42,800 nt of DNA, taken from the IMG/VR virus record IMGVR_UViG_3300045988_042917, positions 1 through 42,800 of that record; one strand, 5' to 3'. The notes under the pieces are model-generated. The model saw nothing but the letters and a program-made list of their open reading frames with translations, did not search any database and had not been told where the DNA came from. The translations under genes were made by a program, and so were the position numbers. Origin of the DNA: a virus. The stretch's first letter is position 1; every line of letters begins with the position of its first letter. This document shows, piece after piece, positions 7,365 to 32,158 of the stretch.

Positions 7365-7943
7365 ATGCGTAACGTGTCAAAAATGGAGGACATGCAATCT
7401 TACTTTGACGAGTACCCTGAGGCACTGCGAAAAGCGAGAGCTTCAAGCAGTCTTACGCTGGCAGAGCTGGCAAGGATAAGCGGCGTTCCTTATAACAGCA
7501 TTTGCTCCGTCAACTCCGGCGCTACGAAGCAGCCGCTGCTTTATTACTCTGCGGCAACCTGTAAAGCCCTCGGCTTATCCTTGGACGAGCTGTTCGGTAT
7601 AACAAACACAGAGGGCAGCGTTACCCAGCTAAAGCGAATAAACGCATTGGAAGTGAAAGCGGCGTGTCTGGAAAACGACGTTGAGCACCACAGGCGCATG
7701 AACGCTGTTTACAGGCCGCTGATCTTCTGCCTTGTCGGTGTATGCACAATTCTGCTGTGCGCAACCATCGGATATGTAATATTTGATATACAGATTAAAA
7801 GTATCGGTCTGTTCCACTCCGGCGGCTTAACGGTACTGGCCGTGTTCCTGGCTATCGTGGTGCTTGCTGCCGTCGCCCTGATAGCCTTTGCAGTAAAAAC
7901 CGTAATCCACGATGCCAAAACAGCAAAAAGCCCACAGGACTGA
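7365..7943 (+). CDS. Membrane-anchored XRE-family HTH protein (N-terminal HTH, two C-terminal TM helices)
   Basis: LTLAELARISGVPYNSICSVNSGATKQP...LGLSLDELFG is an HTH. The C-terminus has PLIFCLVGVCTILLCATIGYVIF and LTVLAVFLAIVVLAAVALIAFAV. The start is uncertain (ATG 7365, GTG 7374 or ATG 7383). The upstream part of the 239-aa track ORF covers the repeat cluster and is probably non-coding. Confidence 0.7.
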   Translation: MRNVSKMEDMQSYFDEYPEALRKARASSSLTLAELARISGVPYNSICSVNSGATKQPLLYYSAATCKALGLSLDELFGITNTEGSVTQLKRINALEVKAACLENDVEHHRRMNAVYRPLIFCLVGVCTILLCATIGYVIFDIQIKSIGLFHSGGLTVLAVFLAIVVLAAVALIAFAVKTVIHDAKTAKSPQD

Positions 7944-8007
7944 CTCTGTGGGCATTATTCGCTATAAAATTATTTTCGGCGAATATCTAAGGGGGTTAAA
8001 GCGAATA

Positions 8008-9123
8008 ATGAAATGCAAAAAATGCAAAGCCGATATACCGGATGAACTTCATCCCGTATACTGCTGCTACTGCGGCGAGAAGCTTCAGCGCGAACGCAAA
8101 AAGAAGGACGAAATAAGAATACCCACGCCGCGTAAGCGTGGGCAGAAGTGGTATGTTGATCTTCGCCGTGAGGGCGTGACGGTCATTGAGGACACCGAAG
8201 CCGAAGCCAAGGCCAAGGCGATTGCTATAAGAGCCGGGTTTGTTAAGACCCAAAAGAAAACGGACTTGACACTTGCCGAAGCGATAGATAATTATATTGA
8301 AAATCGCCGGAACGTCTTGTCACCGTCAACCCTTGCCGGTTACGGCTCCGTGAAAAAGAACCGCTTTAAGGCCGTAATGGCAAAACCGCTTTCTGATATA
8401 AAGGACTGGCAAGCAGTAATTAACGCAGAAGCGCTTGTGTGCGCTCCTAAGACGCTTAAAAACGCATGGGGGCTTGTGTCACCGGCCATAAAATCCGCCG
8501 GTGTGGAGCTGTCCAGGCTCACCCTACCGCAAATCGTGCCTAAAGACCCAGTTTTTCTTACGCCGGAGCAGATACATGTCTTTATCGCAGCTGTCAAGGG
8601 AACGCCTGTTGAGATAGCTGCACTACTCGGCTTGCATTCGCTCAGGCGCTCCGAGATCGCCGCGCTTGATTGGTCAAATGTCGATTTGGAAAAGCGCACT
8701 ATAAAAGTATCCGGCGCAGTAGTCCCGGGAGAAAATTGGACACTTGTTGAAAAGCCGTCAAACAAAAACGCCACATCGACCCGAACAATACCTATTATGA
8801 TACCGGAGCTTTATGAGGCTTTGACGGCTGTTAAAAGTAAGCACGGTAAGGTCATAACATGCTACATTTCCACAGTGTATGATTGGGTCAATGATATTTG
8901 CGCTGCTAACGGTTTGCCGAAGCTTGGAGTTCACGGCTTGCGTCATTCTTTCGCTTCATTAGCCTACCATGTTCGTATGAGCGAACAGGCTGCAATGCAA
9001 ATAGGCGGCTGGTCAGACTATGCGACGATGCGCAAAATTTACACGCATTTGTCTGCGCAGGACATAGGCCACGCAGAGAATGCAATGCGCGATTTTTACG
9101 ACAATTTACCCAAGCAAAAATGA
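8008..9123 (+). CDS. int: Tyrosine recombinase / phage integrase with an N-terminal zinc ribbon
   Basis: The N-terminus is MKCKKCKADIP...YCCYCGEKL. Catalytic signatures are LHSLRRSEIAAL, HGLRHSFASL and GGWSDYATMRKIYTHL. The ATG at 8008 lies 12 nt after AAGGGGG. Confidence 0.9.
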   Translation: MKCKKCKADIPDELHPVYCCYCGEKLQRERKKKDEIRIPTPRKRGQKWYVDLRREGVTVIEDTEAEAKAKAIAIRAGFVKTQKKTDLTLAEAIDNYIENRRNVLSPSTLAGYGSVKKNRFKAVMAKPLSDIKDWQAVINAEALVCAPKTLKNAWGLVSPAIKSAGVELSRLTLPQIVPKDPVFLTPEQIHVFIAAVKGTPVEIAALLGLHSLRRSEIAALDWSNVDLEKRTIKVSGAVVPGENWTLVEKPSNKNATSTRTIPIMIPELYEALTAVKSKHGKVITCYISTVYDWVNDICAANGLPKLGVHGLRHSFASLAYHVRMSEQAAMQIGGWSDYATMRKIYTHLSAQDIGHAENAMRDFYDNLPKQK

Positions 9124-9195: not shown

Positions 9196-9220
9196 GGTTC
9201 GAATCCCTTACGGCGTGCCA
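9196..9220 (+). other. 3' fragment of a tRNA gene (T-loop, T-stem 3' strand, acceptor 3' strand, G discriminator, CCA). Probable attP core identity segment.
   Basis: The sequence is GGTTCGAATCCCTTACGGCGTGCCA. No matching 5' acceptor strand (ACGCCGT) lies upstream, so it is not a complete tRNA. Confidence 0.6.
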
Positions 9221-9227
9221 AAAAGAG

Positions 9228-9268
9228 AAAACCCCGAAGTCGTTGAAACTTCGGGGTTTTCTTTATTT
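9228..9268 (+). terminator. Rho-independent terminator after int. It is possibly bidirectional because of A-rich sequence (AAAAAGAGAAAA) on the upstream side.
   Basis: The hairpin AAAACCCCGAAGT-cgttgaa-ACTTCGGGGTTTT is followed by CTTTATTT. Confidence 0.8.
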
Positions 9269-9383: not shown

Positions 9384-9770
9384 TTATGCGTTCTTGAGGA
9401 TGCTTATTGCTTTCTTTATCGCCATGTGCTCGCTCTCGCCGCCTGCGGTTTTGAGCATATCCTCAAGCTTTGCTATAGCGTGCTCGTTTTCGTCGGCGCG
9501 GCTGTAATGTCTGCGGCTATAGTCATCATCCCGGCTATAGCGCCCCATGCTGTCGCGCTTGTAGCTGTTGCCTCTCATAAAGCCCTCTGCATCCCATTCG
9601 CTTCTGCGGTTGTAGCCCTCGCCCATGCAGATCTTGTCGATGTTCTTGATGCTGTGCACAAGCTTGTCGATAATGTCAAGTGCGCCAACGTTTAATTCGC
9701 CCTGCTCCGCAATGCTGTCAAGTTCCTCGCAAAGCATGTCGCGCAGTCTTTCAAGTGTTCTCATACTCAT
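9384..9770 (-). CDS. Hypothetical protein with helical ends and an R/D/S/Y-rich centre. Last gene of the post-lysis island.
   Basis: The 128-aa product is MSMRTLERLRDML...SYKRDSMGRYSRDDDYSRRHYSRADENEHAIAKLEDMLKTAGGESEHMAIKKAISILKNA. No function is recalled for it. Confidence 0.6.
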   Translation of the reverse strand: MSMRTLERLRDMLCEELDSIAEQGELNVGALDIIDKLVHSIKNIDKICMGEGYNRRSEWDAEGFMRGNSYKRDSMGRYSRDDDYSRRHYSRADENEHAIAKLEDMLKTAGGESEHMAIKKAISILKNA

Positions 9771-9783
9771 GTTATTGCTCCCT

Positions 9784-10206
9784 TCACGCTATTCTGTCAA
9801 CTATAAGATTTGCATTTGCAAAGTTGATTGCCTGATCGCTCGTGTTCTCTGCTGCTACAGTTAGGCAGCAGTCGCGCGGTACGTTTACATTTGCGGCAAC
9901 GTAGATATTAAAATAATTCTCAACCGCAGCCGGTGTTATCGTTGCCGTCGCACTGGTGAGCGGTTCGCCGTTTATCGCTAAAGCAGCTGTGATAGCCTCT
10001 ACAGTGCCGCCGGTGGGTATGGCTATATTCGCGCCAAAGGCAACGCGATAACGCGCTCTGCACTGATTTGTGAGACCTCTGAGCGTGACAATGCCTGCGC
10101 CCTCGCGGTGCACTATGCTGCAATTACCGGCTACCGCAGTCTCGGTGAGAGGTACGTTCTGCCCGGCTGCAACGGTTACAATGCTCGAGTTCGTAAATTC
10201 AGCCAT
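9784..10206 (-). CDS. Putative C1q/TNF-like jelly-roll protein resembling the BclA/BxpB C-terminal domain, without a collagen-like region
   Basis: The ATG at 10206 is preceded by GGAAAGGAGAG. The overall pattern (...YRVAFGANIA...GG..A..LAINGEPL...NIYVAANVNV...AINFANANLIVDRIA) resembles exosporium TNF-like domains. The similarity was judged by eye only. Confidence 0.4.
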   Translation of the reverse strand: MAEFTNSSIVTVAAGQNVPLTETAVAGNCSIVHREGAGIVTLRGLTNQCRARYRVAFGANIAIPTGGTVEAITAALAINGEPLTSATATITPAAVENYFNIYVAANVNVPRDCCLTVAAENTSDQAINFANANLIVDRIA

Positions 10207-10414
10207 CGTTTTCGCTCTCCTTTCCGGCAATACCAAAAGGCATTGACAGCGACATGGTTTTTATCATGTTTTCAAAGTAATCGCCTTTTTCAGTTTCGTT
10301 GACAGTCTTGATGATATACGCAAACGTGTTAAGCTCGCTGACATCGAGCGTGTCAAGGTCTACGTCCATAAGATAGTCAATGAATTTTTCTTTGAGTTCT
10401 TTGCAAGTTGCCAT
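10199..10414 (-). CDS. Hypothetical acidic protein (71 aa)
   Basis: The ORF overlaps the next gene by 8 nt. No family was recognised. Confidence 0.5.
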   Translation of the reverse strand: MATCKELKEKFIDYLMDVDLDTLDVSELNTFAYIIKTVNETEKGDYFENMIKTMSLSMPFGIAGKESENDG

Positions 10415-10430
10415 ATAATCAGTCCTTTCA

Positions 10431-10463
10431 TAAAAAATGCGGTGAGGCTATACGCCCCACCGC
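10431..10463 (-). terminator. Rho-independent terminator or attenuator inside the island, minus strand
   Basis: On the minus strand GCGGTGGGGC-gtata-GCCTCACCGC (one mismatch) is followed by ATTTTTTAT. Confidence 0.6.
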
Positions 10464-10531
10464 TTATCGTTAGTATCGGTAAAGGCCGACCATTTTCGTA
10501 AAGTCACGAAAAAGCTAAACTATGTGATTTG

Positions 10532-11254
10532 TTATGCGCAGCTACCGCATGCCCCGTAGGGTGCAGACGAAGCCCAAGGGTTACAAGTGATGTAAGCCGG
10601 AGTCGGGCAAGGCCGCAGCTGAGACACGAGGTAATTATTCTGCGCAGCCTGCGAAGCTGCAAGCTTGAGGTTCTGGTTCTCGGTCTGCAAATCCTGCATC
10701 TTGCTGTTGACGAGGAAATCGAGAATTGCCTTGCTATTGCTGTTTGCGTTGTCGATAATGTCGCGTGTTGCGTTCTGCACAGTGTTGCGAGTATCGCAAG
10801 CCTGCGTTGCCATATCGTAACGCACCTGAGCAATTGCCGCGCGGTTCTCGCAGCAGCACTCCTGAGCCTGCATCTGCATTGCGTTCAGCTGCTGCATAAG
10901 TGCGGCCTGCTGATTGCAGCGTGACAACTCGGAAGAGTAGAAGCCGTTTGTAACCGCCTGAGTGACACCGGCGAAGCCGTTAAGCATTCCCGTGTTCATG
11001 GCGTAGAAGCCGTCACACAGACCGTTGTTAACGCCGTCAAGCTTTCGCTCGATGTTTGCAAAGTCGGAAGTTAGAACGTATCCGTCCATCACTCCACCAT
11101 TGTTACCGCCCCAGCCGTTGCCACCCCAGCCGAAAAGCACGATGAAAAAGAGGATTATCCACCATCCGTCACCGCCAAAACCGCCGAAGCCGCTGTTTGC
11201 TGAGGTTGGTGCAACCGGCATAGTCATTACCGGCGCATCAGAAGAAATCGCCAT
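10532..11254 (-). CDS. Unusual membrane protein: a Gly/Trp-rich N-terminus around one TM helix, a Q/N/A-rich helical region with a CCC motif, and a Cys/Pro-rich C-terminus
   Basis: The sequence is ...NSGFGGFGGDGWWIILFFIVLFGWGGNGWGGNNGG...QMQAQECCCENRAAIAQ...LRPCPTPAYITCNPWASSAPYGACGSCA. The N-terminus resembles tiny YjcZ-type sporulation TM peptides, from memory. Confidence 0.65.
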   Translation of the reverse strand: MAISSDAPVMTMPVAPTSANSGFGGFGGDGWWIILFFIVLFGWGGNGWGGNNGGVMDGYVLTSDFANIERKLDGVNNGLCDGFYAMNTGMLNGFAGVTQAVTNGFYSSELSRCNQQAALMQQLNAMQMQAQECCCENRAAIAQVRYDMATQACDTRNTVQNATRDIIDNANSNSKAILDFLVNSKMQDLQTENQNLKLAASQAAQNNYLVSQLRPCPTPAYITCNPWASSAPYGACGSCA

Positions 11255-11309
11255 TGTTTAGTTTTCCTTTCGATATGTATTTACAAATACCCGGCCGGAT
11301 AAAATGTAC

Positions 11310-11516
11310 CTACTTCATAAGTGCCTGGAACTGCTGTGCAAAGCTCTGCGCCTGATTAAGCTGCTGCTGCGTTATCTTTCCGCTTTGCAGCATTTTTTGC
11401 ACTTCCTGTTGTGGGTCTCCCTGAAATGTGCTTTTAAACTGCTGAAAGCGCTGCACAAGCTGCTGAAACTGCGGATTACCTCCGCCGCCGAGAGCCTGAA
11501 ACAAAGGATTACTCAT
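11310..11516 (-). CDS. Small Gln-rich protein (68 aa)
   Basis: The product is MSNPLFQALGGGGNPQFQQLVQRFQQFKSTFQGDPQQEVQKMLQSGKITQQQLNQAQSFAQQFQALMK. It overlaps the upstream gene by 8 nt. Confidence 0.55.
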   Translation of the reverse strand: MSNPLFQALGGGGNPQFQQLVQRFQQFKSTFQGDPQQEVQKMLQSGKITQQQLNQAQSFAQQFQALMK

Positions 11517-11877
11517 TGCTTACCTCCTTTGGCATAAGCGCCGCGACTTGCTTTACAAGCGCCTCATACTCCGCTCTGGTCACATAGTCCGCAGTTGGCT
11601 GAGCCGGTGCGTTCTGTGCTCGTTCCGTGTAGTCGAGAATGCGCATAGTCGGCATGCCTGCTGCGTCAACGGATTTAAGATAGATCGTTTGCCGTTCGCT
11701 ATCCCAAAGCGGAACAGTGTTCCCGGCAGCTACTAAATACGCTTTGCCGGCTGCCTCGCCTTGCACCCAGATCATCCCGTTGTTTTGCGGCTGCTGAGTG
11801 CGCATCTGCGCGAGGTTGTCCATAAGCGGAGGTTGATAATATGGTTGCCCATACATGTTGCCGTAACCGTAAGCCAT
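11509..11877 (-). CDS. Hypothetical protein with a Y/G/Q/P-rich N-terminus and a conserved-looking IWVQGEAAGKAY core
   Basis: The product is MAYGYGNMYGQPYYQPPLMDNLAQMRTQQPQNNGMIWVQGEAAGKAYLVAAGNTVPLWDSERQTIYLKSVDAAGMP.... Function is unknown. Confidence 0.6.
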   Translation of the reverse strand: MAYGYGNMYGQPYYQPPLMDNLAQMRTQQPQNNGMIWVQGEAAGKAYLVAAGNTVPLWDSERQTIYLKSVDAAGMPTMRILDYTERAQNAPAQPTADYVTRAEYEALVKQVAALMPKEVSNE

Positions 11878-11879
11878 GA

Positions 11880-12257
11880 TTAATCCTCTCTTTCAAAGTA
11901 ATAAACCGGCACTTCCTCGCCGCTGTCCCATGTGTCATAGTAATCGCCGTTCACGACGGTCACGACGTGCCCGGACAGAGCAAGGACATAAACGCCGTGC
12001 GGATGCTCATTGGCGAAGGCGGCTACTGTGTAGCACTCCGGGCAAGCATCCGGCAGCATGCGCTGTCTAAAGCCGCTGGCTTTGAGGTAACTCCCCCAGA
12101 CGCTGTTTCCCGATGGCATGTCGTGCGCTCTCAGGCCTTCAACGCACAAAGCGAGATAGGTCTTTTCCCATTCCGTTCCCATTGCTTTTGCAATTGCTCT
12201 CACTGCGCAGTCGCCGACGCGCTTAGCGCCCGGATTAGGATTAAAAAACACGAACAT
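11880..12257 (-). CDS. Putative papain-like (Cys-His-Asp) fold protein. First gene of the post-lysis island.
   Basis: A candidate catalytic triad can be read from NPNPGAKRVGDCAVRAIAKAMG...VWGSYL...HPHGVYVLALSGHVVTVVNGDYYDTWDSG. The assignment is tentative. Confidence 0.45.
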   Translation of the reverse strand: MFVFFNPNPGAKRVGDCAVRAIAKAMGTEWEKTYLALCVEGLRAHDMPSGNSVWGSYLKASGFRQRMLPDACPECYTVAAFANEHPHGVYVLALSGHVVTVVNGDYYDTWDSGEEVPVYYFERED

Positions 12258-12344: not shown

Positions 12345-12370
12345 AAAAAAAGGGGAGGTTTTGCCTCCCC
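12345..12370 (-). terminator. Strong rho-independent terminator ending the late/lysis transcript
   Basis: On the minus strand GGGGAGG-caaaa-CCTCCCC is followed by TTTTTTT, immediately after the stop codon at 12371. Confidence 0.8.
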
Positions 12371-12619
12371 TCAGCTTTTGAAAAGCCGCTCGTAATTGTG
12401 TTCGATTTTTGCTCTTGCCGTAGAAAGGCGTTTCGAGACGGTTTTTCGGTCAAGCCCTATTTCTTCTGCAATGTCTATCTGCGGTATCTGCTGTATGAAA
12501 TACAGATCAGCAATCCTGCTGCCCTCGCGTCCGAGATTTGCGCTGTATATTAGCTTTTCCCACTGTTCACGCGGCAGCAGCGCCATGTCCGGCGGCAGCC
12601 TCAAGCGAGCCTGTGTCAT
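12371..12619 (-). CDS. Sigma-70 region-4-like / ArpU-type small HTH transcription regulator, translationally coupled to the holin gene
   Basis: ADLYFIQQIPQIDIAEEIGLDRKTVSKRLSTARAKIE has the region-4 HTH pattern. Its start overlaps the holin stop (ATGA). Confidence 0.6.
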   Translation of the reverse strand: MTQARLRLPPDMALLPREQWEKLIYSANLGREGSRIADLYFIQQIPQIDIAEEIGLDRKTVSKRLSTARAKIEHNYERLFKS

Positions 12620-12879
12620 TTATCACGCTTCGGCTTATCGTACTCCATAGCCTGCCTGCTGTCGCTTACTCCGGCGGTCGTCGGATCTGTGACTACGCCG
12701 AGAATGGTAAGCACCGCGAACAGCGCGTTTACAACGGCCAGCAGCTTGTCTCCCAGCGCGTCAAGCTTGAGATCGATGCCGAACACCGCCGCCACTACCT
12801 GAACAAGCAGCAGCACCGCCGGAACGAGCGCGAGCCAAAAGGTTTTGTTTTTAAGTCTTACAGTCCAGTTGATTTTCAT
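12616..12879 (-). CDS. Holin of the phi-LC3 / Phage_holin_1 type
   Basis: MKINWTVRLKNKTFWLALVPAVLLLVQVVAAVFGI...LTILGVVTDPTTAGVSDS is the characteristic LC3-family sequence pattern. Confidence 0.85.
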   Translation of the reverse strand: MKINWTVRLKNKTFWLALVPAVLLLVQVVAAVFGIDLKLDALGDKLLAVVNALFAVLTILGVVTDPTTAGVSDSRQAMEYDKPKRDK

Positions 12880-13130: not shown

Positions 13131-13841
13131 TTATTTCTCCAACATCGTTTCAATCATTCTTTTGTTATATATCGTCACCCTGAGCATATCCTCCGTCAGG
13201 TCGATCACGCCGTTGCCCTTGCCCTTGATTATGCCGTCCTGCATAAGCTGCCTGACGGTATCGCGGTAAAAGCCCTCCGGCACATCCTCTATCGTTTTCC
13301 ATCTTTCCATTTCTTCATCCTCGCTTTCTGCTGTATATTTCGGCCTGCCGAAGCCGTAGACCGTGCTGCCGAGATACCGGGTAACGCGCTGCACGGCGTT
13401 GCCGTAGTTGCCCTCTATGGTAACGAACGTGTTGCCGCTTACGCTTTCGACAATGCCCGTGTGGCATGGCAGCCCGTCGCGGCTGTCGCGCTGAAAATAC
13501 TGATCGCCGACCTGCGGCTTGGTGAAAAGTCTCGCCTGTGCCGCGTAATACTTCGCCCAGCTCACGCAGCTTGCGCCGTATGGCCCGGTAAGGCACAGAA
13601 CATCCTTTGCCTCGCTCCCGGCAATGCGCCAGAAGCACCACGCTACAAAGCTTGTGCACCATTCATAGCCGTTCTTCGGCGTGTTCCAGAATTTCGCCTT
13701 ATCAAGCTCGGCCTGAAACATCGTGAAGTTGCCTCGTCCGACGTTGTCCTCAAAGCTGTATAAGTCCTTGTCCGATGCCTTTTCCTTATAGCCTATGTAC
13801 TTTGCTGCAAGTGTGAGCACCTGTTTCGGGGTAATGTTCAT
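13131..13841 (-). CDS. Endolysin: an N-terminal CHAP / NlpC-P60-like amidase-peptidase domain and a C-terminal putative wall-binding segment
   Basis: The catalytic pattern is GYEWCTSFVAWCFWRI ... CHTGIVESV ... TIEGNYGN. The ATG at 13841 is preferred (AAAGGACGG upstream). The gene is adjacent to the holin. Confidence 0.8.
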   Translation of the reverse strand: MNITPKQVLTLAAKYIGYKEKASDKDLYSFEDNVGRGNFTMFQAELDKAKFWNTPKNGYEWCTSFVAWCFWRIAGSEAKDVLCLTGPYGASCVSWAKYYAAQARLFTKPQVGDQYFQRDSRDGLPCHTGIVESVSGNTFVTIEGNYGNAVQRVTRYLGSTVYGFGRPKYTAESEDEEMERWKTIEDVPEGFYRDTVRQLMQDGIIKGKGNGVIDLTEDMLRVTIYNKRMIETMLEK

Positions 13842-14083
13842 GGTTGAAAAATCACCGTCCTTTATCATCCCGGTGGGCATTTTTTATTTTACCCATCTCG
13901 CGCCCTACGAGATGTTCTTCAATTTGTGGCGGTTGTAAATCTTCAAGGATAGCTATTCTTTTTTGGGGCTTGTGCTGTCTATCTAAACTGAGCCGCCGCA
14001 GTTTTCTTTTTTCAAGCCGCCTATTTATAAGTCCCCGAACGGCAGGGGGCAGTATTGCAAACGGCATTAATGCCGGTCACAAG

Positions 14084-17817: not shown

Positions 17818-20800
17818 TTAGTTTTCTTTGTCGGGATTGTAATATTCCCGTGCGTGGTCGATTATAGTCTGCATCGGGTTTGCGCTCTTGTATGCCGCCA
17901 TCTCCCATTTTGCAAGCGAATAGTCGTTGTTGACCTCGTACTTTGCAATATGATCGGCGTAGGAATAGACATATTTGAGCATGTACGCCTTTTCGGGGTC
18001 TGCCGCGCCGGAATATGCCGCGCTGTTTATAACGCCCTGCGCAAGCTCGTATGAAGTCTGGCCCTTCGTCGTCGCGTATTTTACATACTCGTCGGCTGTC
18101 AGGTACTCGCCGTTTATCTTGGTGTTCGTCTTTGCACGGCTGGGATATACGCTCGTTTCGCCGAGATCGTAAAGCCGTTCGAGCTCTCCGTCTATCTCCG
18201 TCGGGCGCTCCTTCTTGACGTATGCGGGATTTACAAAGTTGTTGAGCATTCTTTCAAAGAGGTTGCCGGTCTCCTCCGTGCGCCCCCATGCGTCGATGTA
18301 CGGTATCTGGCTGAAATCGTAAAACGGTATCTTGTTTGCGATCTTGCCCCACATGTATTGCAGCTCAGAGCCGACTTTGCTGTTTCGGTCAATGTATGTC
18401 GTCTCGCGCTGAGCTTCCTCAAATGAGCGTTCAGCCTGTCCGAACAGCGTCGGGAAATACTGCGATATGTAGTTTGCCGCCATGCTCGATACGATTTTGA
18501 AAGTACCCTGTCCCTGCTTGATGTACGCGAGGTTATCGAAAAGATCGTTTACGCTTTGCAGCATGGACATTTCAAACATCGGTGTGCTCAGGCTCATGAC
18601 CGAGCTCATGAGGTTCTGCAAAAATCCCTTGTCCTCGTTTTTGCTGCTCAGGGAGTTGAACAGCTCAACGCCGACGAACAGCGGCATACTTTCCGGCGCG
18701 AGCCAGTCAAGCGTAATGCTCATCCCGCCTATGCTCAAGGCGTAATTCTGCTTGCCGCTCAGCTCGTCAAAATAGTTTTGCTTTTCATCATCGTCATCAC
18801 CGCCGCTCAGAACGCCCCATGAGGCCAAAAGTATACCCAGCCCCATAAGTGCCGAGCCCGTAAGCCCTGCCGAAATATCGTCTATAAACTCTGCCGGGCT
18901 CATGCCGTTTTCAATGTCTCCGTTTACATATGCCTTGACCTTTTTGGTGTCCAGCGCAAGGGACTTTATAAGCCCGACCGGCGAGTATTCAACAGCCCGG
19001 GCTAATATGTTGGCCGGGGTTTTCTTAAACGGAAGAACGCCCTCAATGAGCACAGCAGCGACTTTGTTATCCACCTTGCCGAGCCTGCTGACCTGAGCGG
19101 AAAACCAGTTGGTATCGCGGTAAGTGGCTTTCTGCGCTTCCTTGATGGCAATGGTCTGTGCCTTGATTATCGTCTCCTCCGGCACTTTGCCCGTGTTGAG
19201 CTGTTCAGCGCTTATGCCGTTTGCCTTGTACCACTTGGCAAGCGCGTTTGCGTATGCAGGCTTGCAGAACCATGCATCCTCCGCGTCGAGCGCTGCCGAG
19301 TTGCCCTTGCGTGCCGCCTCAAGTATCTTGGTCTTATATATCGTCCTGTGCTTGTCGATGCCCTGAAATGTATCGACATACTTGCCGCCCGAAAGTATGA
19401 CCTCCTGCACAGCCTCATAGTCCGACATTGCGTATTTGACGAGCGCCGCATCCGCCGCATTACTTGAGTTAAGTATTGCCTTGCTTCGCTCTATGCCGCC
19501 GTTTATCTTCGCGTCGGCTATATTCTCAAGGCCGTATGCTATCGTGTTCTTGACGGCTCTGACGGGCACGAAAAATGCGTTGCCTACGATGTTTCGGACA
19601 TGTGTTCTCGGATTGCCCAACATAGCGAGATAGCGGAAGTTATTGAGCTTTTCGTACCACGTCGCATCTATCTGCCGTGCTACGCTCTGCTCTATGTTCG
19701 CCCATGCGGTTTTTATGCCATCCTCGTCGCCCTGTCTGAGCGCCTTGGCATACTCATCGTAAAGGATTTTGTCAACATGTATATCCGCCTTGTTGTCCTT
19801 GTACCGCTCGTTGAGGTCTTCCTCGATGTTCTCTATCGACTTTGCCGCGAGGTACAGTCTGCATTCGGGCGAAAGCTTGTTGAGAATGCGCATAGCCTGC
19901 AAGGACTGCGCCGTGTTCGTGGAGTTTTTGACCATGAGCGATGCAATGTCCATCGCCGTTGCGTAATCTCCGCTGTTGACGGCATTGTTGTAAAGGGCAA
20001 TGCCCATAACGGTATTGTCCTTCGATACTCTGCCGCTGTTTATCTCGGCCTTGTAGTTTGCAAGCGCCTGTTCCCAGCCGTCGATTTCGATAGTACGGTT
20101 AGCCTTTTTAAGCGCTTCCTCGTCGGAGTATGCAATGTGCGAGAACTTACCCAGTGCCGCATCCTCTCTCAGCGCGTCGGAGAACTCAGCCGGTGTCATG
20201 CCGCTGTTGGCTATGGTGGAAACATGCTTGCTCGTGAGCTTGCCGTTCAGATCTTCCTTTGGTATCTCCTGCGGCGCTCTGCGCTGCTGTTCGGCGAGAT
20301 TTGCCTCCTGCTCCTTGCTTATCGGGTGCAGTGCGCTGTCGCCCTCGCCCTGAGCCTCCGTTACCCAGCGTTCGCCCACGGTTTCCTCTCCCGTGAAGTT
20401 TGCGGAAGCTGCGCCCATGCCCTCCGGCAGGTCGTTGCCCAACCGCTCATCAACTCTCGTGAGAATGTTTTGAAGGGCTTTCATTTTGGCGTAGCTTTCG
20501 AGTTTCCTGTGCTCACGCGCATATTGATTGCTGAGTACCGTAAAGCGGTTTTTCGCCTTGGTGGTAGTGTCGTAGTCTGCGCCGCTATCCTCCGCCTCTG
20601 TAAGCGTCTGCTGTGCCGCACTGAGCTTTTCGCGTATGTCCTCGACCTTGCTGTACTGCTTCTTATAGTCGCGTATAAGGCCGCGCTCGTTCTCGTTTGC
20701 GGCATCCTCCGCCGTAGCCTGCGCAAGCTTCCTCTCATTCTGCCGCCTCAGCTCGTTAAGTCTCTCCGGCTCGCGGGAAAATTGCTTGTTGACATTTTTG

Positions 20801-23800
20801 GAAGAACTGCGTATACTATTTTCAGACGCAGAGCTGATGGCCGGTGCGCTCCCTCCCAGCGATTGACTACCGCTGGTGACAGTCCCGACGGTGGTAGGCT
20901 CTGCGTTAGTCATTTCCGGCAGCGCAAAAGCCGTGCCCTCCGGGGTCAGGATACGGTGTACCTTGTAGCGATTGCCCTTAGTTTTCATCACAACCGCCGC
21001 CATATTTCCACGTTTTCCGTTCAGCTCCACCGGGGCTGCGATAGTCAGTGTTTCATAGTCTCTCCCCTTATGGTTGCCGTGCCCACTGATCTCAATGCCG
21101 CGTTTCAACACCATCGGCAGTGCCTGATATGCCGCCGCCTCCGCATCTGTCTGAATGTAATTTAAGCTTCGATTCAGCATCTTCTCGTCGAAATCAATCA
21201 CGCCGATATCAGGGTTATCCACGCGATAGCCTGTTTTTTTCAGGCTGTTTACAATTTTCTTTCGGAACGCTCCGGTACTCATGCCTCTCCAACCGTTGTC
21301 ACGAATTGTGGCGACGGCTTTCATGCTGTTCAATTCTCCCTGATGTTCCCGCAGTTGAGTCTTAACGCTGTCCTGCTCACTCTGACTCATGGCATAGCTG
21401 CTATCCTCCGCAAACACAGTGTTCTCGTCACCGTAGTCTGGCGGTACCATCTTCCGTGTCCAGTCAGACATGCTTCTGCGGTTCGCCGCGTCTCTGGCCT
21501 CGATCTCACCCGCTGTGTTGTAGTAAAGCTCACTCGGTACACTGTTGCCCGGACGGTTCATCTGCGTGTAGTAGTTGTTCAGCAGGTCGTAGTATTCGTT
21601 GATTTTCCCGTCAAGTCCCCGCCGCTCTGCTTCCTCCCACAGCCGGTCATATTCTGTGAGGTCGTCGTCCAGTTCTCCGGCTTGTTCTATTTTGTCCTTC
21701 AGCGCCAGCGCTTCCTCGTTCGCCTTACCCAGCTGGAATTGAATCAGTTTTTCCCTTGCATCTTGGAATCCCTTGCTTTGAATCTTGTCCCCGCTGGTCA
21801 GCTTTTCTTCCCAGTATTCCCGGTTGCTCCCTCGCGTGAAGCCCTCCGCGTTCTGCATGGCGTGCTGAATCTCGTGCACCAGCGTGCTCTCCGGCGCGTT
21901 GCGCAGCTCATTGCTTAGGGTGATAAGGTTTTGAGACGGGCTGTAGCTGCCCATGGTGTTCTTCGGCATGTCAGCAAACTCCACCTTCGTCCGCCGCAGC
22001 TGCGGATACGCCCGGAATAATGCCTCATGGTCGAGAATGTCCTCCAGCGTTGCGTTGCCTCTGTCTACGCGCTCGCTCAGGCGGCCATACTCCCGCCCCC
22101 ACGTTTCATCCATCTGCCGCAGTCGGGTCTCTTCCTCCGCTGTCACCTCGCCGGTCATCCACTTGCGCATCAGCTTCTGATACTCCGCATAGTCAGGATG
22201 ACCCCTGCTAAAGGCAGCGTCGCCGCCGCGATGGTAGGTCATCTCGCTGTCGTCGATCTCAAACCGCCACTTGCCGTCCATGCCCTTGAACCAGCCGGTA
22301 GCCTTGCGGATGCTCTTCATGTCAGCACCTTGCGTCTGCATTTGTTTAGCTCTTTCAAGCTGCTCAAGGTCTGCTGTCCGCGCATGTTTGCCAGCATAGC
22401 TATACTTCACCCCGCCCTTTTTCGGCGGTGCTCTGCCCTTGCTGCCGGTTCTCTCGGCGGCGTATTTGCGCACGGTGTCCTGTGCTTTCCCGTAGCTTTC
22501 GCTGTTTAAGTCCGTGCCCTCGAAGATGTTCATTCTGCCCAGCGCATCGCAGCATATCTCTTCAAAAGCCTCTTCGGCGCTGAGAATGCCGCCGTATTCG
22601 CTGCTGTATATCTCGACAAGCTCGTTTAATTCGTCCTCAGTGAAGTCGTCAAGCAGCATTTCTTTTGCCTCGTTCAAGCTCAGATCGCCGTTTTCAAACG
22701 CCGCATGCCCCATCTCGTGGCGCATTATCTGCTCTGCGGTGTAGTCGGGATGGTCTGCTCTCACCATGACGGTCTTTTTTGCCGTGTCAACAGCGCCCCT
22801 GAACTCGCCGCCTGCATAGCGGATATTACCGCCCACAAAATATGTGACCTTATAGCCGTAGCTCTCCGCGAGCTTGCGGCCTTTTTTCATGTCCTCGGTG
22901 TCCTCTGCGGCATAATAAACGCCCTTCTGCTGCTTGCCCTTGTAGCTTACTTTTTCGCCAGCTTTGATTTGAGCCGCGCCAACGCCGCCTTGTTCTTTTT
23001 GACTTCCTCCGGCGACATTTTCTCCTGTGCCTGTTTCCACTCCGCGTATCTGTACTTCGGTATTCTGACCGTTAATCCGCTCCTCGACGTTGTGTATACG
23101 TACTCCATTATCGTTTACCTCCTGTGTGTTATTGATAGTGACCGGCGCTGCTGTTTCGGTGCTCATTACGCTGTCCGCGCCCATCTGATACGCAATGTTC
23201 GCCTGTGCCGTGCTGAGTACGGGCACTTTGCCGAGCGCGGCCTTGTCCGTGCCCTGCTGCCCCATCTGATAAACAGCATTGAACGCCGTTTCAAACGCCT
23301 GCGGCGCTGTCGGATTGAGATTGTATGTGCGCTCGACCACTTCCGGCGCAACTTCGTACTGCCGCGCCATGCTGTTTATGACAATGGGCTTGCTGTATTC
23401 GTTCGCTGCTGTTCTGCGGATATTATCAACAACGCCGTTACCGGCCATCTGATTTATAGCATCCTGCACAGCGGCATTGCCTATCGCCGCATTTTGCGTA
23501 CTGCTGAGCTTTTGACCGCTCGCTGCAAGCGCTGCTGCCTGTGCCGTGTTATCATCGACGAGTACACCCGACTGTGCAAGCATATCCCGCACCGTCTGTG
23601 TGTCCGTTCCGATAGTCATTAGCCGTTCAAGGTTCTCAGTTTCCTTGTCGCTGAGATTGCGCTTGCCGCGCTGTGTGCTCTGATCAATGATGCTTTTATA
23701 CTTTTCTGCCGTAAGCTGCGCGTCGCCGCCCTGCTCCGTGGCAAGACCGGCATTGACTAACTGGCGCTGATATTCCTCATACGCTCTCTGCTGCGCGTTC

Positions 23801-25110
23801 TCAGCTCTGTACTGGCCGCTGACAACGTTTGTACCGGCACCCGCAAGGCCGAGCGCACCGCCTATGATGTAGTCCTCAAGCATCTGCTGAGTGTCATAAT
23901 CATCGGCAAGGTCTGACCAGTCACCTTTACCATCGTCAAGCTTTAGTATGCGATCTGCGATAGGGTTGAGGATATCCGAGAGCACTTCCTCCATGCCCTC
24001 TTCATTTGCACCGACTAAGACCTTTAATGCCGTGCGGCCTTTGTCTGTCTTTGCAAGGCGGTTTACAAGGCTGTTGACAAGGCTCTCGTTTCTGATAATG
24101 CCCTTGCCGTATGCGACCTTGGAGACCGAACCGAAGAGCTTTTCCGTAAGCACTTCAATAGCCGCGCTCTTTAAACCGGATATCTGCTGCTCACCCTCGC
24201 TCAGGCCGCGCTGCTGTGCGTCCAGTGAGGCAGAACCGTATGCGCGTCCTGCCATTGCTGCAATACCTGTGCCGGGTGCAACAGCGTTAAGCAGCGCGTC
24301 ACCGGCAAACTGTGCGCCTGCTATGCCGAAGTCAACAACGCCCTGGCCGAATTTGCCCAAGCCCTGCTTTGCCTCCTGCTCGTACTCATACGCGCGCTTT
24401 GAACTTTCCTCGGCGCTTTCCAGCAGCTTTTGCTTGAAATCTCCGGCCCAGCCGTCATTAAAGCTTTTTATCTTCTCCTGCTCCGCCTTGCGCTGCGCCT
24501 GTCCCGGCCTGACCTGCCTGCCCTCTTTTTTCGCAGTCTTGGCCTCGTTTATTGCCGCTCGTGCGCTCTCACCCATTGAAAGATTGCCGGTCGGGGACAT
24601 AACATCCGCGCCAAGCTTCTTATAGGCCGCACCCGATGAAGAAAGTGCGCTTTTTAAAATCGCCTCGCCCTTGAAATTGCCCGTGGGCGTAGACGTAAAA
24701 GCCCTTTGCGCCGATGCTCTGCCGAGCGGTCTGCCGGTTTCGGCAGGCTCAAAGCGGCTGCGAGGTGTCGCCGTGCCCTTTACCGGCCTGTTCGCCGCCG
24801 CGCCTGTTTTTCCGTCGCCGTATGCTTTCGTGTATACATACGCCGGGTTATTGGCCATAAGCGCATCTGCGCTAAGTTTATTTCTGCTGCCGAGATCGTT
24901 TCGTATCTCATCGATCTGAGAAAGTACGTTCGATTTGGAATTGCTTGCTTCTATTGGCTTTTTACCGGCAGAGCCGGAGGCGCTGTTTGTTTTTGCGGTT
25001 TTATAACCAGCGGCTATCAAATTGGCTTTTTCGGCATAATCTCTCGCTGCGTTTTGCTGCCGCCTTTTTACTTCGGCCTTTATTTCTTCCCTGTTGATTC
25101 TTTTAGCCAT
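17818..25110 (-). CDS. Giant (2430 aa) polyvalent-type virion / ejection protein with two HExxH zincin-like motifs and a C-terminal TM segment
   Basis: It is a single uninterrupted ORF. HEMGH lies at aa 798-802 (nt 22705-22719) and HEIQH at aa 1079-1083 (nt 21862-21876). There is a Gly-rich hydrophobic region near the N-terminus and the TM segment LTGSALMGLGILLASWGVLSGGDDDD. It occupies the place where a tape measure or internal proteins would sit. Confidence 0.75.
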   Translation of the reverse strand: MAKRINREEIKAEVKRRQQNAARDYAEKANLIAAGYKTAKTNSASGSAGKKPIEASNSKSNVLSQIDEIRNDLGSRNKLSADALMANNPAYVYTKAYGDGKTGAAANRPVKGTATPRSRFEPAETGRPLGRASAQRAFTSTPTGNFKGEAILKSALSSSGAAYKKLGADVMSPTGNLSMGESARAAINEAKTAKKEGRQVRPGQAQRKAEQEKIKSFNDGWAGDFKQKLLESAEESSKRAYEYEQEAKQGLGKFGQGVVDFGIAGAQFAGDALLNAVAPGTGIAAMAGRAYGSASLDAQQRGLSEGEQQISGLKSAAIEVLTEKLFGSVSKVAYGKGIIRNESLVNSLVNRLAKTDKGRTALKVLVGANEEGMEEVLSDILNPIADRILKLDDGKGDWSDLADDYDTQQMLEDYIIGGALGLAGAGTNVVSGQYRAENAQQRAYEEYQRQLVNAGLATEQGGDAQLTAEKYKSIIDQSTQRGKRNLSDKETENLERLMTIGTDTQTVRDMLAQSGVLVDDNTAQAAALAASGQKLSSTQNAAIGNAAVQDAINQMAGNGVVDNIRRTAANEYSKPIVINSMARQYEVAPEVVERTYNLNPTAPQAFETAFNAVYQMGQQGTDKAALGKVPVLSTAQANIAYQMGADSVMSTETAAPVTINNTQEVNDNGVRIHNVEERINGQNTEVQIRGVETGTGENVAGGSQKEQGGVGAAQIKAGEKVSYKGKQQKGVYYAAEDTEDMKKGRKLAESYGYKVTYFVGGNIRYAGGEFRGAVDTAKKTVMVRADHPDYTAEQIMRHEMGHAAFENGDLSLNEAKEMLLDDFTEDELNELVEIYSSEYGGILSAEEAFEEICCDALGRMNIFEGTDLNSESYGKAQDTVRKYAAERTGSKGRAPPKKGGVKYSYAGKHARTADLEQLERAKQMQTQGADMKSIRKATGWFKGMDGKWRFEIDDSEMTYHRGGDAAFSRGHPDYAEYQKLMRKWMTGEVTAEEETRLRQMDETWGREYGRLSERVDRGNATLEDILDHEALFRAYPQLRRTKVEFADMPKNTMGSYSPSQNLITLSNELRNAPESTLVHEIQHAMQNAEGFTRGSNREYWEEKLTSGDKIQSKGFQDAREKLIQFQLGKANEEALALKDKIEQAGELDDDLTEYDRLWEEAERRGLDGKINEYYDLLNNYYTQMNRPGNSVPSELYYNTAGEIEARDAANRRSMSDWTRKMVPPDYGDENTVFAEDSSYAMSQSEQDSVKTQLREHQGELNSMKAVATIRDNGWRGMSTGAFRKKIVNSLKKTGYRVDNPDIGVIDFDEKMLNRSLNYIQTDAEAAAYQALPMVLKRGIEISGHGNHKGRDYETLTIAAPVELNGKRGNMAAVVMKTKGNRYKVHRILTPEGTAFALPEMTNAEPTTVGTVTSGSQSLGGSAPAISSASENSIRSSSKNVNKQFSREPERLNELRRQNERKLAQATAEDAANENERGLIRDYKKQYSKVEDIREKLSAAQQTLTEAEDSGADYDTTTKAKNRFTVLSNQYAREHRKLESYAKMKALQNILTRVDERLGNDLPEGMGAASANFTGEETVGERWVTEAQGEGDSALHPISKEQEANLAEQQRRAPQEIPKEDLNGKLTSKHVSTIANSGMTPAEFSDALREDAALGKFSHIAYSDEEALKKANRTIEIDGWEQALANYKAEINSGRVSKDNTVMGIALYNNAVNSGDYATAMDIASLMVKNSTNTAQSLQAMRILNKLSPECRLYLAAKSIENIEEDLNERYKDNKADIHVDKILYDEYAKALRQGDEDGIKTAWANIEQSVARQIDATWYEKLNNFRYLAMLGNPRTHVRNIVGNAFFVPVRAVKNTIAYGLENIADAKINGGIERSKAILNSSNAADAALVKYAMSDYEAVQEVILSGGKYVDTFQGIDKHRTIYKTKILEAARKGNSAALDAEDAWFCKPAYANALAKWYKANGISAEQLNTGKVPEETIIKAQTIAIKEAQKATYRDTNWFSAQVSRLGKVDNKVAAVLIEGVLPFKKTPANILARAVEYSPVGLIKSLALDTKKVKAYVNGDIENGMSPAEFIDDISAGLTGSALMGLGILLASWGVLSGGDDDDEKQNYFDELSGKQNYALSIGGMSITLDWLAPESMPLFVGVELFNSLSSKNEDKGFLQNLMSSVMSLSTPMFEMSMLQSVNDLFDNLAYIKQGQGTFKIVSSMAANYISQYFPTLFGQAERSFEEAQRETTYIDRNSKVGSELQYMWGKIANKIPFYDFSQIPYIDAWGRTEETGNLFERMLNNFVNPAYVKKERPTEIDGELERLYDLGETSVYPSRAKTNTKINGEYLTADEYVKYATTKGQTSYELAQGVINSAAYSGAADPEKAYMLKYVYSYADHIAKYEVNNDYSLAKWEMAAYKSANPMQTIIDHAREYYNPDKEN

Positions 25111-32091: not shown

Positions 32092-32158
32092 TACCGCCTG
32101 CAGGGCTCGAACCTGCATCTCTATCTCTCCGAGCGTTTTACCGTTAAACTAAGGCGAT
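32092..32158 (-). ncRNA. tRNA-like element with acceptor stem, D-arm and T-arm but no canonical anticodon arm (about 67 nt). Possibly a pseudo-tRNA or an RNA processing signal.
   Basis: The minus strand reads ATCGCCT-TA-GTTT-AACGGTA-AAAC-G-CTCGGAGAGATAGAGAT-GCAGG-TTCGAGC-CCTGC-AGGCGGT-A. The acceptor stem is 7 bp with one G-U pair, the D stem is 4 bp with GG in its loop, and the T stem is 5 bp with a TTCGAGC loop. The 17-nt purine-rich middle segment cannot form a 5-bp stem. Confidence 0.45.

Follow-up and report, generated by a model that had tools for sequence, protein, structure and literature searches.

A conserved accessory gene cassette of tailed gut viruses, located between the lysis genes and the attachment site of a prophage

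We analyzed a stretch of viral DNA of 42,800 nucleotides (IMG/VR record IMGVR_UViG_3300045988_042917, positions 1 to 42,800), which is called the window below. The subject of this work is an island of seven genes on its minus strand (9384-12257), situated between the lysis genes and the phage attachment site (attP). A preliminary description of the sequence presented these genes as a terminator-delimited group coding for proteins of odd composition, possibly a cargo of lysogenic conversion that modifies the spore or cell surface. We found that the seven genes together with a gene upstream of them, which encodes a helix-turn-helix (HTH) protein of 82 amino acids (aa), form a single accessory cassette, conserved among tailed gut viruses and transferred horizontally between phages.

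Starting from its upstream end, the island includes P1 (11880-12257, 125 aa), P2 (11509-11877, 122 aa), P3 (11310-11516, 68 aa), P4 (10532-11254, 240 aa), P5 (10199-10414, 71 aa), P6 (9784-10206, 140 aa if counted from the ATG at 10206) and P7 (9384-9770, 128 aa). All these open reading frames (ORFs) are present on the minus strand as described earlier, a GGAG-type ribosome-binding site precedes each of the seven genes, and all seven score as coding according to a codon-usage model trained on related loci. The ATG at 10206 is the most likely start of P6, because it overlaps the stop codon of P5 and because the homologues begin with MAE; the TTG at 10236 is a less likely start. The gene pairs P1/P2, P2/P3, P5/P6 and P6/P7 are tightly packed or overlap, which fits translational coupling. 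The unusual compositions were also confirmed: P3 contains 29% Gln, P4 has 10 Cys and a CCC motif, P5 is acidic with an isoelectric point of 4.2, and the center of P7 is rich in R, S, D, E and Y. The HTH gene (12371-12619, minus strand) lies immediately upstream of the island. A Phage_holin_1 holin gene (12616-12879) and then the genes of an XhlA-like protein and a lysin (13131-13880) are located further upstream. The integrase gene (7912-9123, plus strand) is downstream.

The attP core occupies positions 9196-9220 of the plus strand, beside the integrase gene, and is identical to the last 25 nucleotides of tRNA-Arg(ACG). Four bacterial contigs of up to 523 kilobases (kb) carry near-identical integrated copies of the prophage, with 94% nucleotide identity over the island. 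In these copies the homology with the window breaks off inside tRNA-Arg(ACG), and bacterial genes follow. In particular, the end of the prophage in locus L140 aligns up to a point within tRNA-Arg, and ARAGORN places this tRNA gene at L140 11035-11111. The island is thereby confirmed to lie between the lysis genes and attP. Since the attP core is the 3' end of tRNA-Arg(ACG), the window represents an excised or circular form of the prophage. The neighbors of the integrated prophage in the bacterial contigs are YmdB, SbcCD-like, RlmD-like and MatE genes.

Conservation of the gene set was assessed in two surveys. In the genome survey one genome per species was scanned, and 45 loci with a relative of P4 were obtained. 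The survey of viral contigs covered the best 80 of at least 585 IMG/VR contigs that encode a relative of P6. The order P1-P2-P3-P4-(P5)-P6-P7 is kept in about 20 of the 45 genome loci at 35-80% identity. Permuted orders were observed in distant loci, namely P2-c6-P4-P6-P7-P1, P2-c6-P4-P6-c9-c11 and HTH-P2-c6-P4-c18-c15. Among the viral contigs, 75-80 of 80 show the order seen in the window. P7 is encoded in all 80 viral contigs and P4 in 78; P2 and P3 each occur in 76 and P1 occurs in 75, with the missing genes falling at contig ends. P5 is a variable add-on, seen in about 6 of 47 loci and in only 13 of the 80 contigs. A further gene that follows P7, designated c7 and absent from the window, is present in 66 of the 80 contigs. 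The genes that flank the island in the window are far less constant: among the same 80 contigs its holin occurs in five, its lysin in 14 and its 543-aa tail-region gene in two. Thus the cassette is conserved while the flanking genes are replaced, which means that it moves as a unit between phage backbones. An HTH gene, either of the “sig” cluster or of the GerE-type cluster c32, is the gene next upstream of the cassette in at least 15 of 47 genome loci and in 42 of the 80 viral contigs. This recurrent adjacency indicates that the HTH gene is probably a part of the unit.

The core of the cassette consists of P2, P3, P4, one small beta-sandwich protein (P6 in the window) and one helical protein with an R/D/Y/S-rich disordered part (P7 in the window, c9 or a DUF7841 protein elsewhere). 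P1 and P5 are optional members. A peptidase gene and an HTH gene are often present too, and the cassette keeps to the distal end of the late region, in most cases next to the lysis genes. The suggestion that the seven genes could be a coherent module, for which co-occurrence had been named as a check, is therefore borne out by genome loci and viral contigs alike. The opposite assumption, that seven unrelated small genes of the moron kind came to stand side by side by chance, has almost no credit left. It draws on the occurrence of P1 alone in many unrelated phages and on the presence of P5 in a minority of cassettes. For P2, P3, P4, P6 and P7 it is refuted by the gene order, which is kept across loci at 35-50% protein identity and across cassette types; moreover, several gene pairs overlap or abut. 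One more arrangement was seen in Dulem virus 33: its cassette is colinear except that P3 and P4 are separated by an inserted gene on the opposite strand, annotated as an endonuclease (L001 7617-8168).

Scans of all seven proteins against Pfam, NCBIfam, PADLOC and PHROGs revealed no characterized family. Significant PHROG families were found for all the island proteins except P5, and every family matched by a cassette protein is annotated as “unknown function”, none having a structural annotation. P2, P3, P4, P5 and P7 have no relative in Pfam, NCBIfam, PADLOC or the PDB. Profile searches of the PDB with P1, P2, P6, P7 and DUF7841 gave nothing significant. When diverse homologues were scanned singly against Pfam, P6 gave a sub-threshold match to BclA_C, and P1, P2, P4 and P7 gave nothing consistent. 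The sole PADLOC match, that of P7 (E-value 0.0046, 15 bits), is at chance level, and we rejected the identification of the cassette with a known defense system. The earlier statement that no product resembles a known toxin, defense system or annotated virion part agrees with these scans. We found no published account of the cassette in the literature on DUF7841, on prophage exosporium or BclA proteins, on crAss lysis cassettes or on methanogen viruses. The cassette cannot be filed under holins or spanins, defense systems, sporulation proteins or annotated virion parts. What it shares with known groups is the fold of P6, the catalytic-type residues of P1 and the position between lysis genes and the attachment site.

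The terminators that had been described around and within the island are present within a few bases of the expected places. A terminator-like hairpin of 9 pairs followed by a T run separates the HTH gene from P1 (12350-12372), a hairpin with a T run that may be a terminator or an attenuator follows P4 (10439-10463), and a terminator hairpin of 16 pairs with a T run ends the cassette (9226-9262); all are on the minus strand, and the last one is kept in the integrated copies. The total number of terminator-like sites in the region does not exceed that in shuffled sequences (8 vs 6.6 +/- 2.8); these three hairpins are the longest among the sites, and all three are intergenic. The hairpins 10439-10463 and 12350-12372 recur at equivalent places in relatives. 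In L003, L004, L008-L012, L020, L028 and L035 the spacer from the HTH gene to P1 likewise contains a hairpin and T run, and the genome of Butyrivibrio virus Ceridwen has an annotated terminator at the place equivalent to 12350-12372. In several relatives one or two terminator hairpins stand about 25-30 nucleotides ahead of the P1 start or directly abut it. A terminator so near the start leaves little or no room for a promoter, which points to read-through or antitermination. On inspection by eye, neither sigma-A nor sporulation-sigma promoters were convincing upstream of P1, and no convincing box of sigma-K or sigma-E type was seen in the upstream regions of the cassettes. Thus, the hairpins themselves are confirmed, but the idea of an independently expressed island is not: terminator-delimited may mean that the cassette is entered by read-through rather than transcribed on its own.

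Several features suggest that the cassette has regulation of its own. The 82-aa protein is a candidate cassette regulator with a putative HTH domain of the sigma-70 region 4 or GerE-LuxR type. Its matches are weak (Sigma70_r4_2 with E-value 1e-3 and 19.1 bits vs the cut-off of 25.7; sigma70-ECF of NCBIfam with 3.9e-8), and its positional equivalent c32 gives 25.9 bits for GerE vs the Pfam cut-off of 23.5. In L030 and L036 the gene directly upstream of P2 (cluster c101) encodes a 195-aa protein with a multi-pass membrane N-terminus and a weak match to AgrB (E-value 8e-4). The C-terminus of this protein reads by eye as HTH-like, and the protein would then be a membrane-tethered version of the HTH protein of the cassette.

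The second feature is located ahead of P4 (11272-11301, minus strand). It includes the palindrome TATCCGGCCGGGTAT (11287-11301), found once in the window, and then TTTGTAAATA, which together make a candidate operator and an extended -10 box. Palindromes ahead of P4 are perfect or near-perfect, 14-16 base pairs (bp) long, with a G+C core, and are followed by a box similar to TGnTAAATA or TATAAT. Palindromes with arms of at least 5 bp, mostly 30-40 nucleotides from the start codon, were detected in 80% of 95 distinct upstream regions of P4 vs 40% of shuffles. Across most loci the kind of palindrome is conserved and its sequence is not. The palindrome resembles an operator placed over the -35 position of a promoter of the extended -10 type, and the product of the neighboring HTH gene is the natural candidate for its binding.

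The third feature is a conserved RNA element of three hairpins in the P4-P5 spacer of about 120 nucleotides (10415-10531, minus strand). It comprises H1 (10493-10512), H2 (10475-10490) and the above-mentioned hairpin with a T run as H3. RNAalifold predicted 21 base pairs on 12 loci, of which 8 show compensatory double changes. An Rfam scan of the cassette region gave chance-level matches only, and no Rfam family fits the element. It should lower the expression of P5-P7 relative to P1-P4. The AT-rich relatives L030, L031, L034 and L036 have a terminator after P4 instead, with a loop able to pair with an upstream segment. As a separate observation, the Rfam 6A RNA motif (RF02925) is matched at 13868-13918 on the minus strand (49.1 bits vs the gathering score of 41.2), where it overlaps the start of the lysin gene (13131-13880); a second, weak match to this motif (20 bits) falls on H1, on the opposite strand.

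P1 belongs to phrog_3754 (E-value 8.5e-31). Its residues N6, D16, C17, R20, A21, H97 and D108 are invariant in 20 sequences with identity down to 22%. The order and spacing of N6, C17, H97 and D108 within about 125 residues resemble those of the C39 bacteriocin-leader peptidase domains with their papain-like succession of Gln/Asn, Cys, His and Asp. Unlike C39 and papain-like peptidases, P1 has no profile match in Pfam, NCBIfam or the PDB at any threshold tried. Of the earlier assignment of P1 to papain-like proteins, the invariant Cys-His-Asp set holds, while membership in a curated peptidase family or likeness to a solved structure was not obtained; we regard P1 as a candidate papain-like enzyme. 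Relatives of P1 are also known from cassette-free Pseudomonas, Bacillus, Geobacillus and Lak phages, and some phage records name them “putative peptidase”. In the type C cassettes a non-homologous gene for a metallopeptidase-like protein of about 110 aa with an HExxH motif is located at the end of the cassette in place of P1. The matches of this protein are sub-threshold (23.7 bits vs 27 for DUF6782, 20.6 vs 22 for Peptidase_M78). In Bacteroides phage C3_41T2LP a PolyVal metallopeptidase closes the cassette. The presence of different peptidase-like genes in different cassette types suggests that a peptidase is wanted and that its identity is interchangeable.

P2 (phrog_21718, E-value 1.3e-26) is a core member found in nearly all loci with P4. 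Its alignment includes a low-complexity N-terminus of variable length rich in Y, G, Q, P and N, then a conserved domain (some 55 aa) and finally a helix at the C-terminus. P3, also a core member, matches phrog_22984 (E-value 4.9e-22), and in distant loci its place is held by the Met/Gln/Asn-rich protein c6. P7 matches phrog_28802 (E-value 5.5e-7). In both the P7 and c9 families the two ends are conserved helices, and the low-complexity stretch inserted between them is 20 to about 200 aa long and rich in R, G, Y, S and D. In the type D cassettes the place of P7 is taken by a DUF7841 protein whose tail is rich in R, D and Y.

Such compositions recall cross-linked biomaterials. One could imagine that the proteins exit the cell together with the virions and form a cross-linked or adhesive matrix released at lysis, in which P1 would cross-link the Gln-rich proteins P2 and P3 in the manner of a transglutaminase, and that this matrix protects or retains the particles outside the anaerobic gut. 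The Gln content of P3, the Y/Q/P/G-rich N-terminus of P2, the 10 Cys of P4, the R/D/S/Y-rich P7 and the lack of signal peptides agree with such a role. The Cys-His-Asp set of P1 is also the triad of transglutaminases; the structures closest to P6 are building blocks of the spore surface (see below), and the distribution of the cassette tracks the gut habitat rather than the type of host envelope. However, this is a speculation from composition only. The substitute for P1 resembles a metallopeptidase and not a cross-linker, relatives of P1 occur in non-gut Pseudomonas and Bacillus phages that have no cassette, and P4 has a membrane-type segment. We consider the matrix a long shot.

P6 is the cassette protein for which the structural evidence is the clearest. 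The AlphaFold2 model has a predicted local distance difference test score (pLDDT) of 89.8 and a predicted template modeling (TM) score of 0.83. The top Foldseek matches in the PDB are the C-terminal domain of F-BclA (9h38, E-value 2e-7, TM 0.71), BxpB (8d02), ExsFA (7r1m and 9h3d) and BclA (1wck), followed by TNF ligands (EDA-A1 and 4-1BBL; 1rj7) and knobs of phage fibers. For 9h38, 8d02, 7r1m, 1wck and 1rj7 the probability is 1.00 and TM ranges from 0.66 to 0.76. In BFVD, stand-alone proteins of 130-145 aa from uncultured gut phages are counterparts of P6 with TM 0.82-0.87. On the basis of this model we are confident that P6 is a stand-alone jelly roll of the TNF/C1q-like kind, as had been supposed from its sequence; the fold search recommended at that time gave the same answer. 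P6 matches phrog_20016 with E-value 1e-56 and has 22 invariant columns in 15 diverse sequences. It is confined to Firmicutes-type phages. Profile-profile comparison detected no homology between P6 and the proteins that occupy the same position elsewhere (c18 and the beta-rich proteins of crAss-like and Bacteroides phages).

The proteins of the Bacillus cereus group (BclA, BxpB, ExsFA, F-BclA) thus share the jelly-roll fold with P6 (TM 0.66-0.76). They differ from it in several respects. The identity is only 10-16%, P6 lacks a collagen-like stalk, its gene is viral, and the cassette occurs also in phages of organisms that do not form spores. The similarity to the corresponding Pfam family BclA_C (PF18573) is far below the threshold (15.9 bits vs the cut-off of 38), and only 3 of 15 diverse homologues of P6 match this family, with the best E-value of 4.4e-4. 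Neither Gly-X-Y repeats forming a collagen-like stalk nor an N-terminal exosporium-targeting region was found in P6.

These data bear on the role proposed at the outset, namely lysogenic-conversion cargo acting like an exosporium or coat module to remodel the spore or cell surface of the lysogen. This role could be suspected from the best PDB matches of P6, which are exosporium and endospore-appendage proteins, from the relatives of the upstream regulator that exceed the Pfam threshold for GerE, from the abundance of Cys, Tyr and Gln, and from the location beside attP. On the other hand, the score of P6 against BclA_C and the lack of a collagen-like stalk speak against it, as does the fact that no cassette protein but P4 has a hydrophobic N-terminus able to act as an export signal. 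The scans of NCBIfam and Pfam detected no YjcZ or any other sporulation family. In particular, the YjcZ-like character attributed to P4 found no support in NCBIfam at E-value up to 1. The decisive evidence comes from the range of viruses that carry the cassette.

Relatives in viruses were sought with tblastn of P4 against GenBank phages and with hidden Markov model searches. In Butyrivibrio virus Ceridwen the lysin gene is directly followed by the HTH gene, the annotated terminator, P1, P2, P3, P4, P6, an inserted gene, P7 and c7, that is, by a full cassette. Ceridwen was seen to grow only lytically and its authors' genome analysis suggests a virulent phage, an antirepressor-like ORF being noted as a hint of lysogeny (PMC7372960). 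Phages of Clostridium perfringens such as vB_CpeP_PMQ04 have the variant P2-c6-P4-c18-c57-c7 about 3 kb downstream of the genes of an amidase, a holin and an XhlA-like protein. In crAss-like phages of Suoliviridae the holin gene is followed by the genes of a LysB/FtsL-like protein (not always present), a DUF7841 protein with an R/D/Y tail, a P4 of full architecture and two small proteins, and then by virion genes. The cultured Bacteroides phage C3_41T2LP encodes, downstream of recombination genes, P4, a beta-rich protein, a 177-aa protein, a 77-aa R/D/Y-rich protein, a DUF7841-like protein and the PolyVal metallopeptidase. Finally, two viruses assigned to Methanomassiliicoccales have a relative of P4 between tail genes and the integrase gene, labeled phrog_16490 by the authors of the records. 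In the crAss-like phage cr115_1 the P4-like gene (L050 3406-4326) has in-frame stops under translation table 11 and becomes one ORF if TAG is not a stop, which fits stop-codon reassignment in that phage.

Butyrivibrio fibrisolvens, the host of Ceridwen, does not form spores. The presence of the full cassette in Ceridwen and of core genes in crAss-like, Bacteroides and archaeal viruses rules out a general spore role and makes a role purely beneficial for lysogens unlikely. A sporulation module restricted to spore-formers was accordingly rejected, and remodeling of the spore or cell surface as lysogenic conversion, in the form initially proposed, appears very unlikely to us. Thus an attractive lead to phage-borne spore-coat genes is removed; an operator-like palindrome and a covarying three-hairpin attenuator are added to what is known of the locus.

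Another possibility is that the cassette is a moron for superinfection exclusion, defense or counter-defense. According to it, a membrane complex expressed from the prophage, or early in virulent phages, blocks the entry of competitor DNA or manipulates the conflict between host and phage. The edge of a prophage beside attP is a classical site of morons, the cassette moves independently of phage backbones, a regulator and terminators come with it, one of its products has a membrane-type segment, and it stands among early or regulatory genes in csAssE-Sib and C3_41T2LP. In Firmicutes prophages the stretch from the lysis genes to attP can house morons, for instance toxin genes in phages of streptococci and staphylococci, and our cassette is similar to them in position, in flanking terminators and in mobility. 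Unlike them, it is also found in phages without integrase and in crAss-like phages, it comprises a syntenic row of six to eight genes where they have one or two, and no product resembles a known factor of host benefit. The characterized exclusion systems that we know of consist of one or two small genes and not of a syntenic set of six to eight genes with a putative jelly-roll trimer and a candidate peptidase. Besides, there is no match in PADLOC, and many relatives have no room for a promoter upstream of P1. Therefore, we hold an exclusion or defense function to be unlikely.

P4 is the hub of the cassette. It matches phrog_16490 (E-value 5.2e-48), and its family includes more than 7,900 clusters at 90% identity and 1,712 representatives at 50% identity, all of 200-330 aa. 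In public assemblies, 943 indexed blocks contain one and the same exact P4 sequence. P4 contains the segment SGFGGFGGDGWWIILFFIVLFGWGGNGWGGNNGG. It has a single hydrophobic segment flanked by Gly and Trp at approximately residues 23-50 and is the only cassette protein with a membrane-type segment (1.68 in a 19-residue Kyte-Doolittle window). This membrane-type segment is kept in 121 of the analyzed full-length representatives of the family, as well as in the crAss-like, Bacteroides, C. perfringens and archaeal versions. Conserved and colinear in the family are the hydrophobic segment, the helices, the invariant CCC, the stretch LAASQxAQNxYL..QLRPxPVPAY..NP and a Gly/Cys-rich tail. The protein contains a Pro-rich RPxPxPAY motif and has the C-terminal peptide QLRPCPTPAYITCNPW. 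The AlphaFold2 model of the monomer is all-helical (helices 32-41, 63-93, 106-132 and 141-213), with a pLDDT of only 50.

Holin T of phage T4 with its antiholins and the i-spanin Rz have one N-terminal membrane segment and a large C-terminal domain. P4 may be similar in plan: some 30 aa form a tail, a single hydrophobic segment comes next, and a predicted helical domain of roughly 190 aa with conserved cysteines follows. P4 is also encoded beside the holin and lysin genes in Firmicutes and crAss-like phages. However, P4 has no sequence or profile similarity to these proteins. Searches of Pfam and PHROGs gave no holin or spanin family, the only match being phrog_16490, no partner with a lipobox was seen in the sequences read, and the window already has a holin. 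Moreover, spanins have no function in monoderm bacteria or archaea, both of which are among the hosts.

Taking these data together, we tentatively favor the explanation that the cassette encodes a self-regulated complex, anchored in the membrane by P4, which serves the virus in lytic development, either in egress or in its control; we consider this possible rather than probable. A role in the lytic development is favored because the full cassette is found in Ceridwen, because P4 and DUF7841 follow the holin of crAss-like phages, and because in most Firmicutes loci the cassette follows the lysin and holin genes in the same orientation. A membrane anchor is proposed since P4 alone has a hydrophobic segment and this segment is kept across the family. 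According to this proposal, P4 would insert into the cytoplasmic membrane of the host by its Gly/Trp-flanked segment and oligomerize into a coiled-coil stalk, on which the partners without signal peptides (a P6 trimer, P2, P3 and P7) would assemble. The stalk and head are suggested by the long helices predicted in P4 and by the TNF-like P6, whose PDB matches include the complex of ExsF with the F-Anchor peptide (9h3d). In that complex a stand-alone head binds a peptide of a separate fiber protein, a plausible model by analogy for P6, which may cap the conserved Pro-rich C-terminal peptide of P4 as ExsF binds F-Anchor. The peptidase would process one of the components, the obvious candidate being the propeptide that precedes the hydrophobic segment of P4. 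Regulation of the cassette is proposed because of the adjacent HTH gene, the palindromes upstream of P4 and the covarying three-hairpin element: the HTH protein might drive or gate the palindrome-bearing promoter ahead of P4, and the structured terminator after P4 would cut the expression of P5-P7 relative to P1-P4. The complex would then act at or around the membrane step of egress, in the timing or assistance of lysis, and not on the spore or cell surface of a lysogen. The gene set with its synteny and distribution, the fold of P6, the conserved residues of P1, the hydrophobic segment of P4 and the regulatory motifs are observed; assembly, topology, processing and timing are inferred.

A number of observations weigh against this explanation. 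No characterized homologue ties the cassette to lysis or to the membrane in the PHROGs, Pfam, NCBIfam, PADLOC and PDB profile searches, and a holin (Phage_holin_1), an XhlA-like protein and a lysin are already there in the window. The adjacency to lysis genes is not universal: P4 follows recombination or antirepressor genes in C3_41T2LP and csAssE-Sib and tail genes in the Bacilli-type loci. The confidence of the P4 model is low, as given above. The hydrophobic segment of P4 is almost devoid of flanking Lys and Arg, so the positive-inside rule gives no orientation and the membrane span itself is doubtful. A terminator after P4 argues against equimolar amounts of P4 and P6. Finally, the types of palindromes and the types of HTH proteins show no one-to-one pairing.

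An alternative use of the same parts is a virion fiber or decoration. In such a structure P4 would be the coiled-coil shaft of a trimeric fiber, anchored in the particle by its hydrophobic N-terminal part, and P6 a distal TNF-like knob; P1 or the metallopeptidase would mature the structure, P2, P3 and P7 would be assembly chaperones, and the cassette would be expressed as the end of the late operon by read-through of the terminators. Structural matches of P6 include the central spike knob of phi812 (9eul), a cyanophage tail-fiber domain (8ke9) and the tail fiber of Klebsiella phage Soft, and relatives of P4 were labeled by the authors of their records “spike protein/glycoprotein” or “outer capsid protein/viral fiber”. 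The cassette is located at the distal end of the string of structural and lysis genes in the same orientation. In crAss-like phages it stands just ahead of the virion structural genes, and in the archaeal viruses P4 is near a tail protein. The terminators about 25-30 nucleotides ahead of the P1 start or abutting it in some relatives fit transcription by read-through. However, no cassette protein is better conserved than P6 (45-98% identity, 22 invariant columns), whereas the tail and lysis genes nearby are replaced; a receptor-binding tip would be expected to behave in the opposite way. An HTH gene, an operator-like palindrome and an internal attenuator belong to the cassette itself, and P4 is among early or regulatory genes in C3_41T2LP and csAssE-Sib. 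Long disordered proteins rich in R, D and Y are unusual in particles. The cassette is found in genomes of siphovirus type as well as in the podovirus-named vB_CpeP_PMQ04 and in crAss-like genomes, and no PHROG of the cassette has a structural annotation. In view of this evidence a virion fiber seems rather doubtful to us.

A bolder version of the membrane-anchored complex can also be formulated. P4 could be a proteolytically primed, membrane-inserting coiled-coil spike, the Gly/Trp-rich hydrophobic segment of which is exposed when P1 or the metallopeptidase cuts off a propeptide and which is capped by P6 or its substitutes; such a spike would breach, remodel or seal the cytoplasmic membrane of the host. 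We consider this version improbable. If it is true, the spike would be a two-polypeptide counterpart of the architecture of TNF ligands and class-I fusion proteins, common to the tailed viruses of Firmicutes, Bacteroidota and methanogens regardless of the envelope. TNF ligands and knobbed viral fibers consist of an anchor, a trimeric stalk and a jelly-roll head, and P4 and P6 together would reproduce this plan as two polypeptides. The difference is that P4 and P6 are encoded by separate genes parted by a terminator, and that in other cassette types P6 is replaced by beta-rich proteins without detectable homology to it.

Whatever the function is, P4 is shared by siphovirus-type viruses of Clostridia, crAss-like phages and viruses assigned to gut methanogens, so the cassette should serve a step that is independent of the host envelope and has no name in current models of the life cycle of tailed viruses. 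P4 apparently crosses the domains of life. The cassette is common in the gut virome, yet each of its components is annotated as unknown. Its cultured carriers are Ceridwen, several phages of C. perfringens and C3_41T2LP.

Reverse-transcriptase genes were observed a few kb upstream of the cassette or of P4 in three genomes: a close relative of the window (L140 4333-5430), an archaeal virus (L053 2933-3967) and a crAss-like phage (L050 449-1471). These genes may belong to diversity-generating retroelements acting on tail proteins, and we found no link between them and the cassette. Two further features of the window lie away from the island. A tRNA gene within the phage genome was detected at 32092-32158 on the minus strand (Rfam tRNA, 45.9 bits). 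The ORF 17818-25110 on the minus strand encodes a protein of 2430 aa, the last 967 aa of which are 84% identical to a prophage protein with the Pfam domains MuF_C and ART-PolyVal. The product is therefore a polyvalent protein with a domain of the ADP-ribosyltransferase type and not a tape measure protein.

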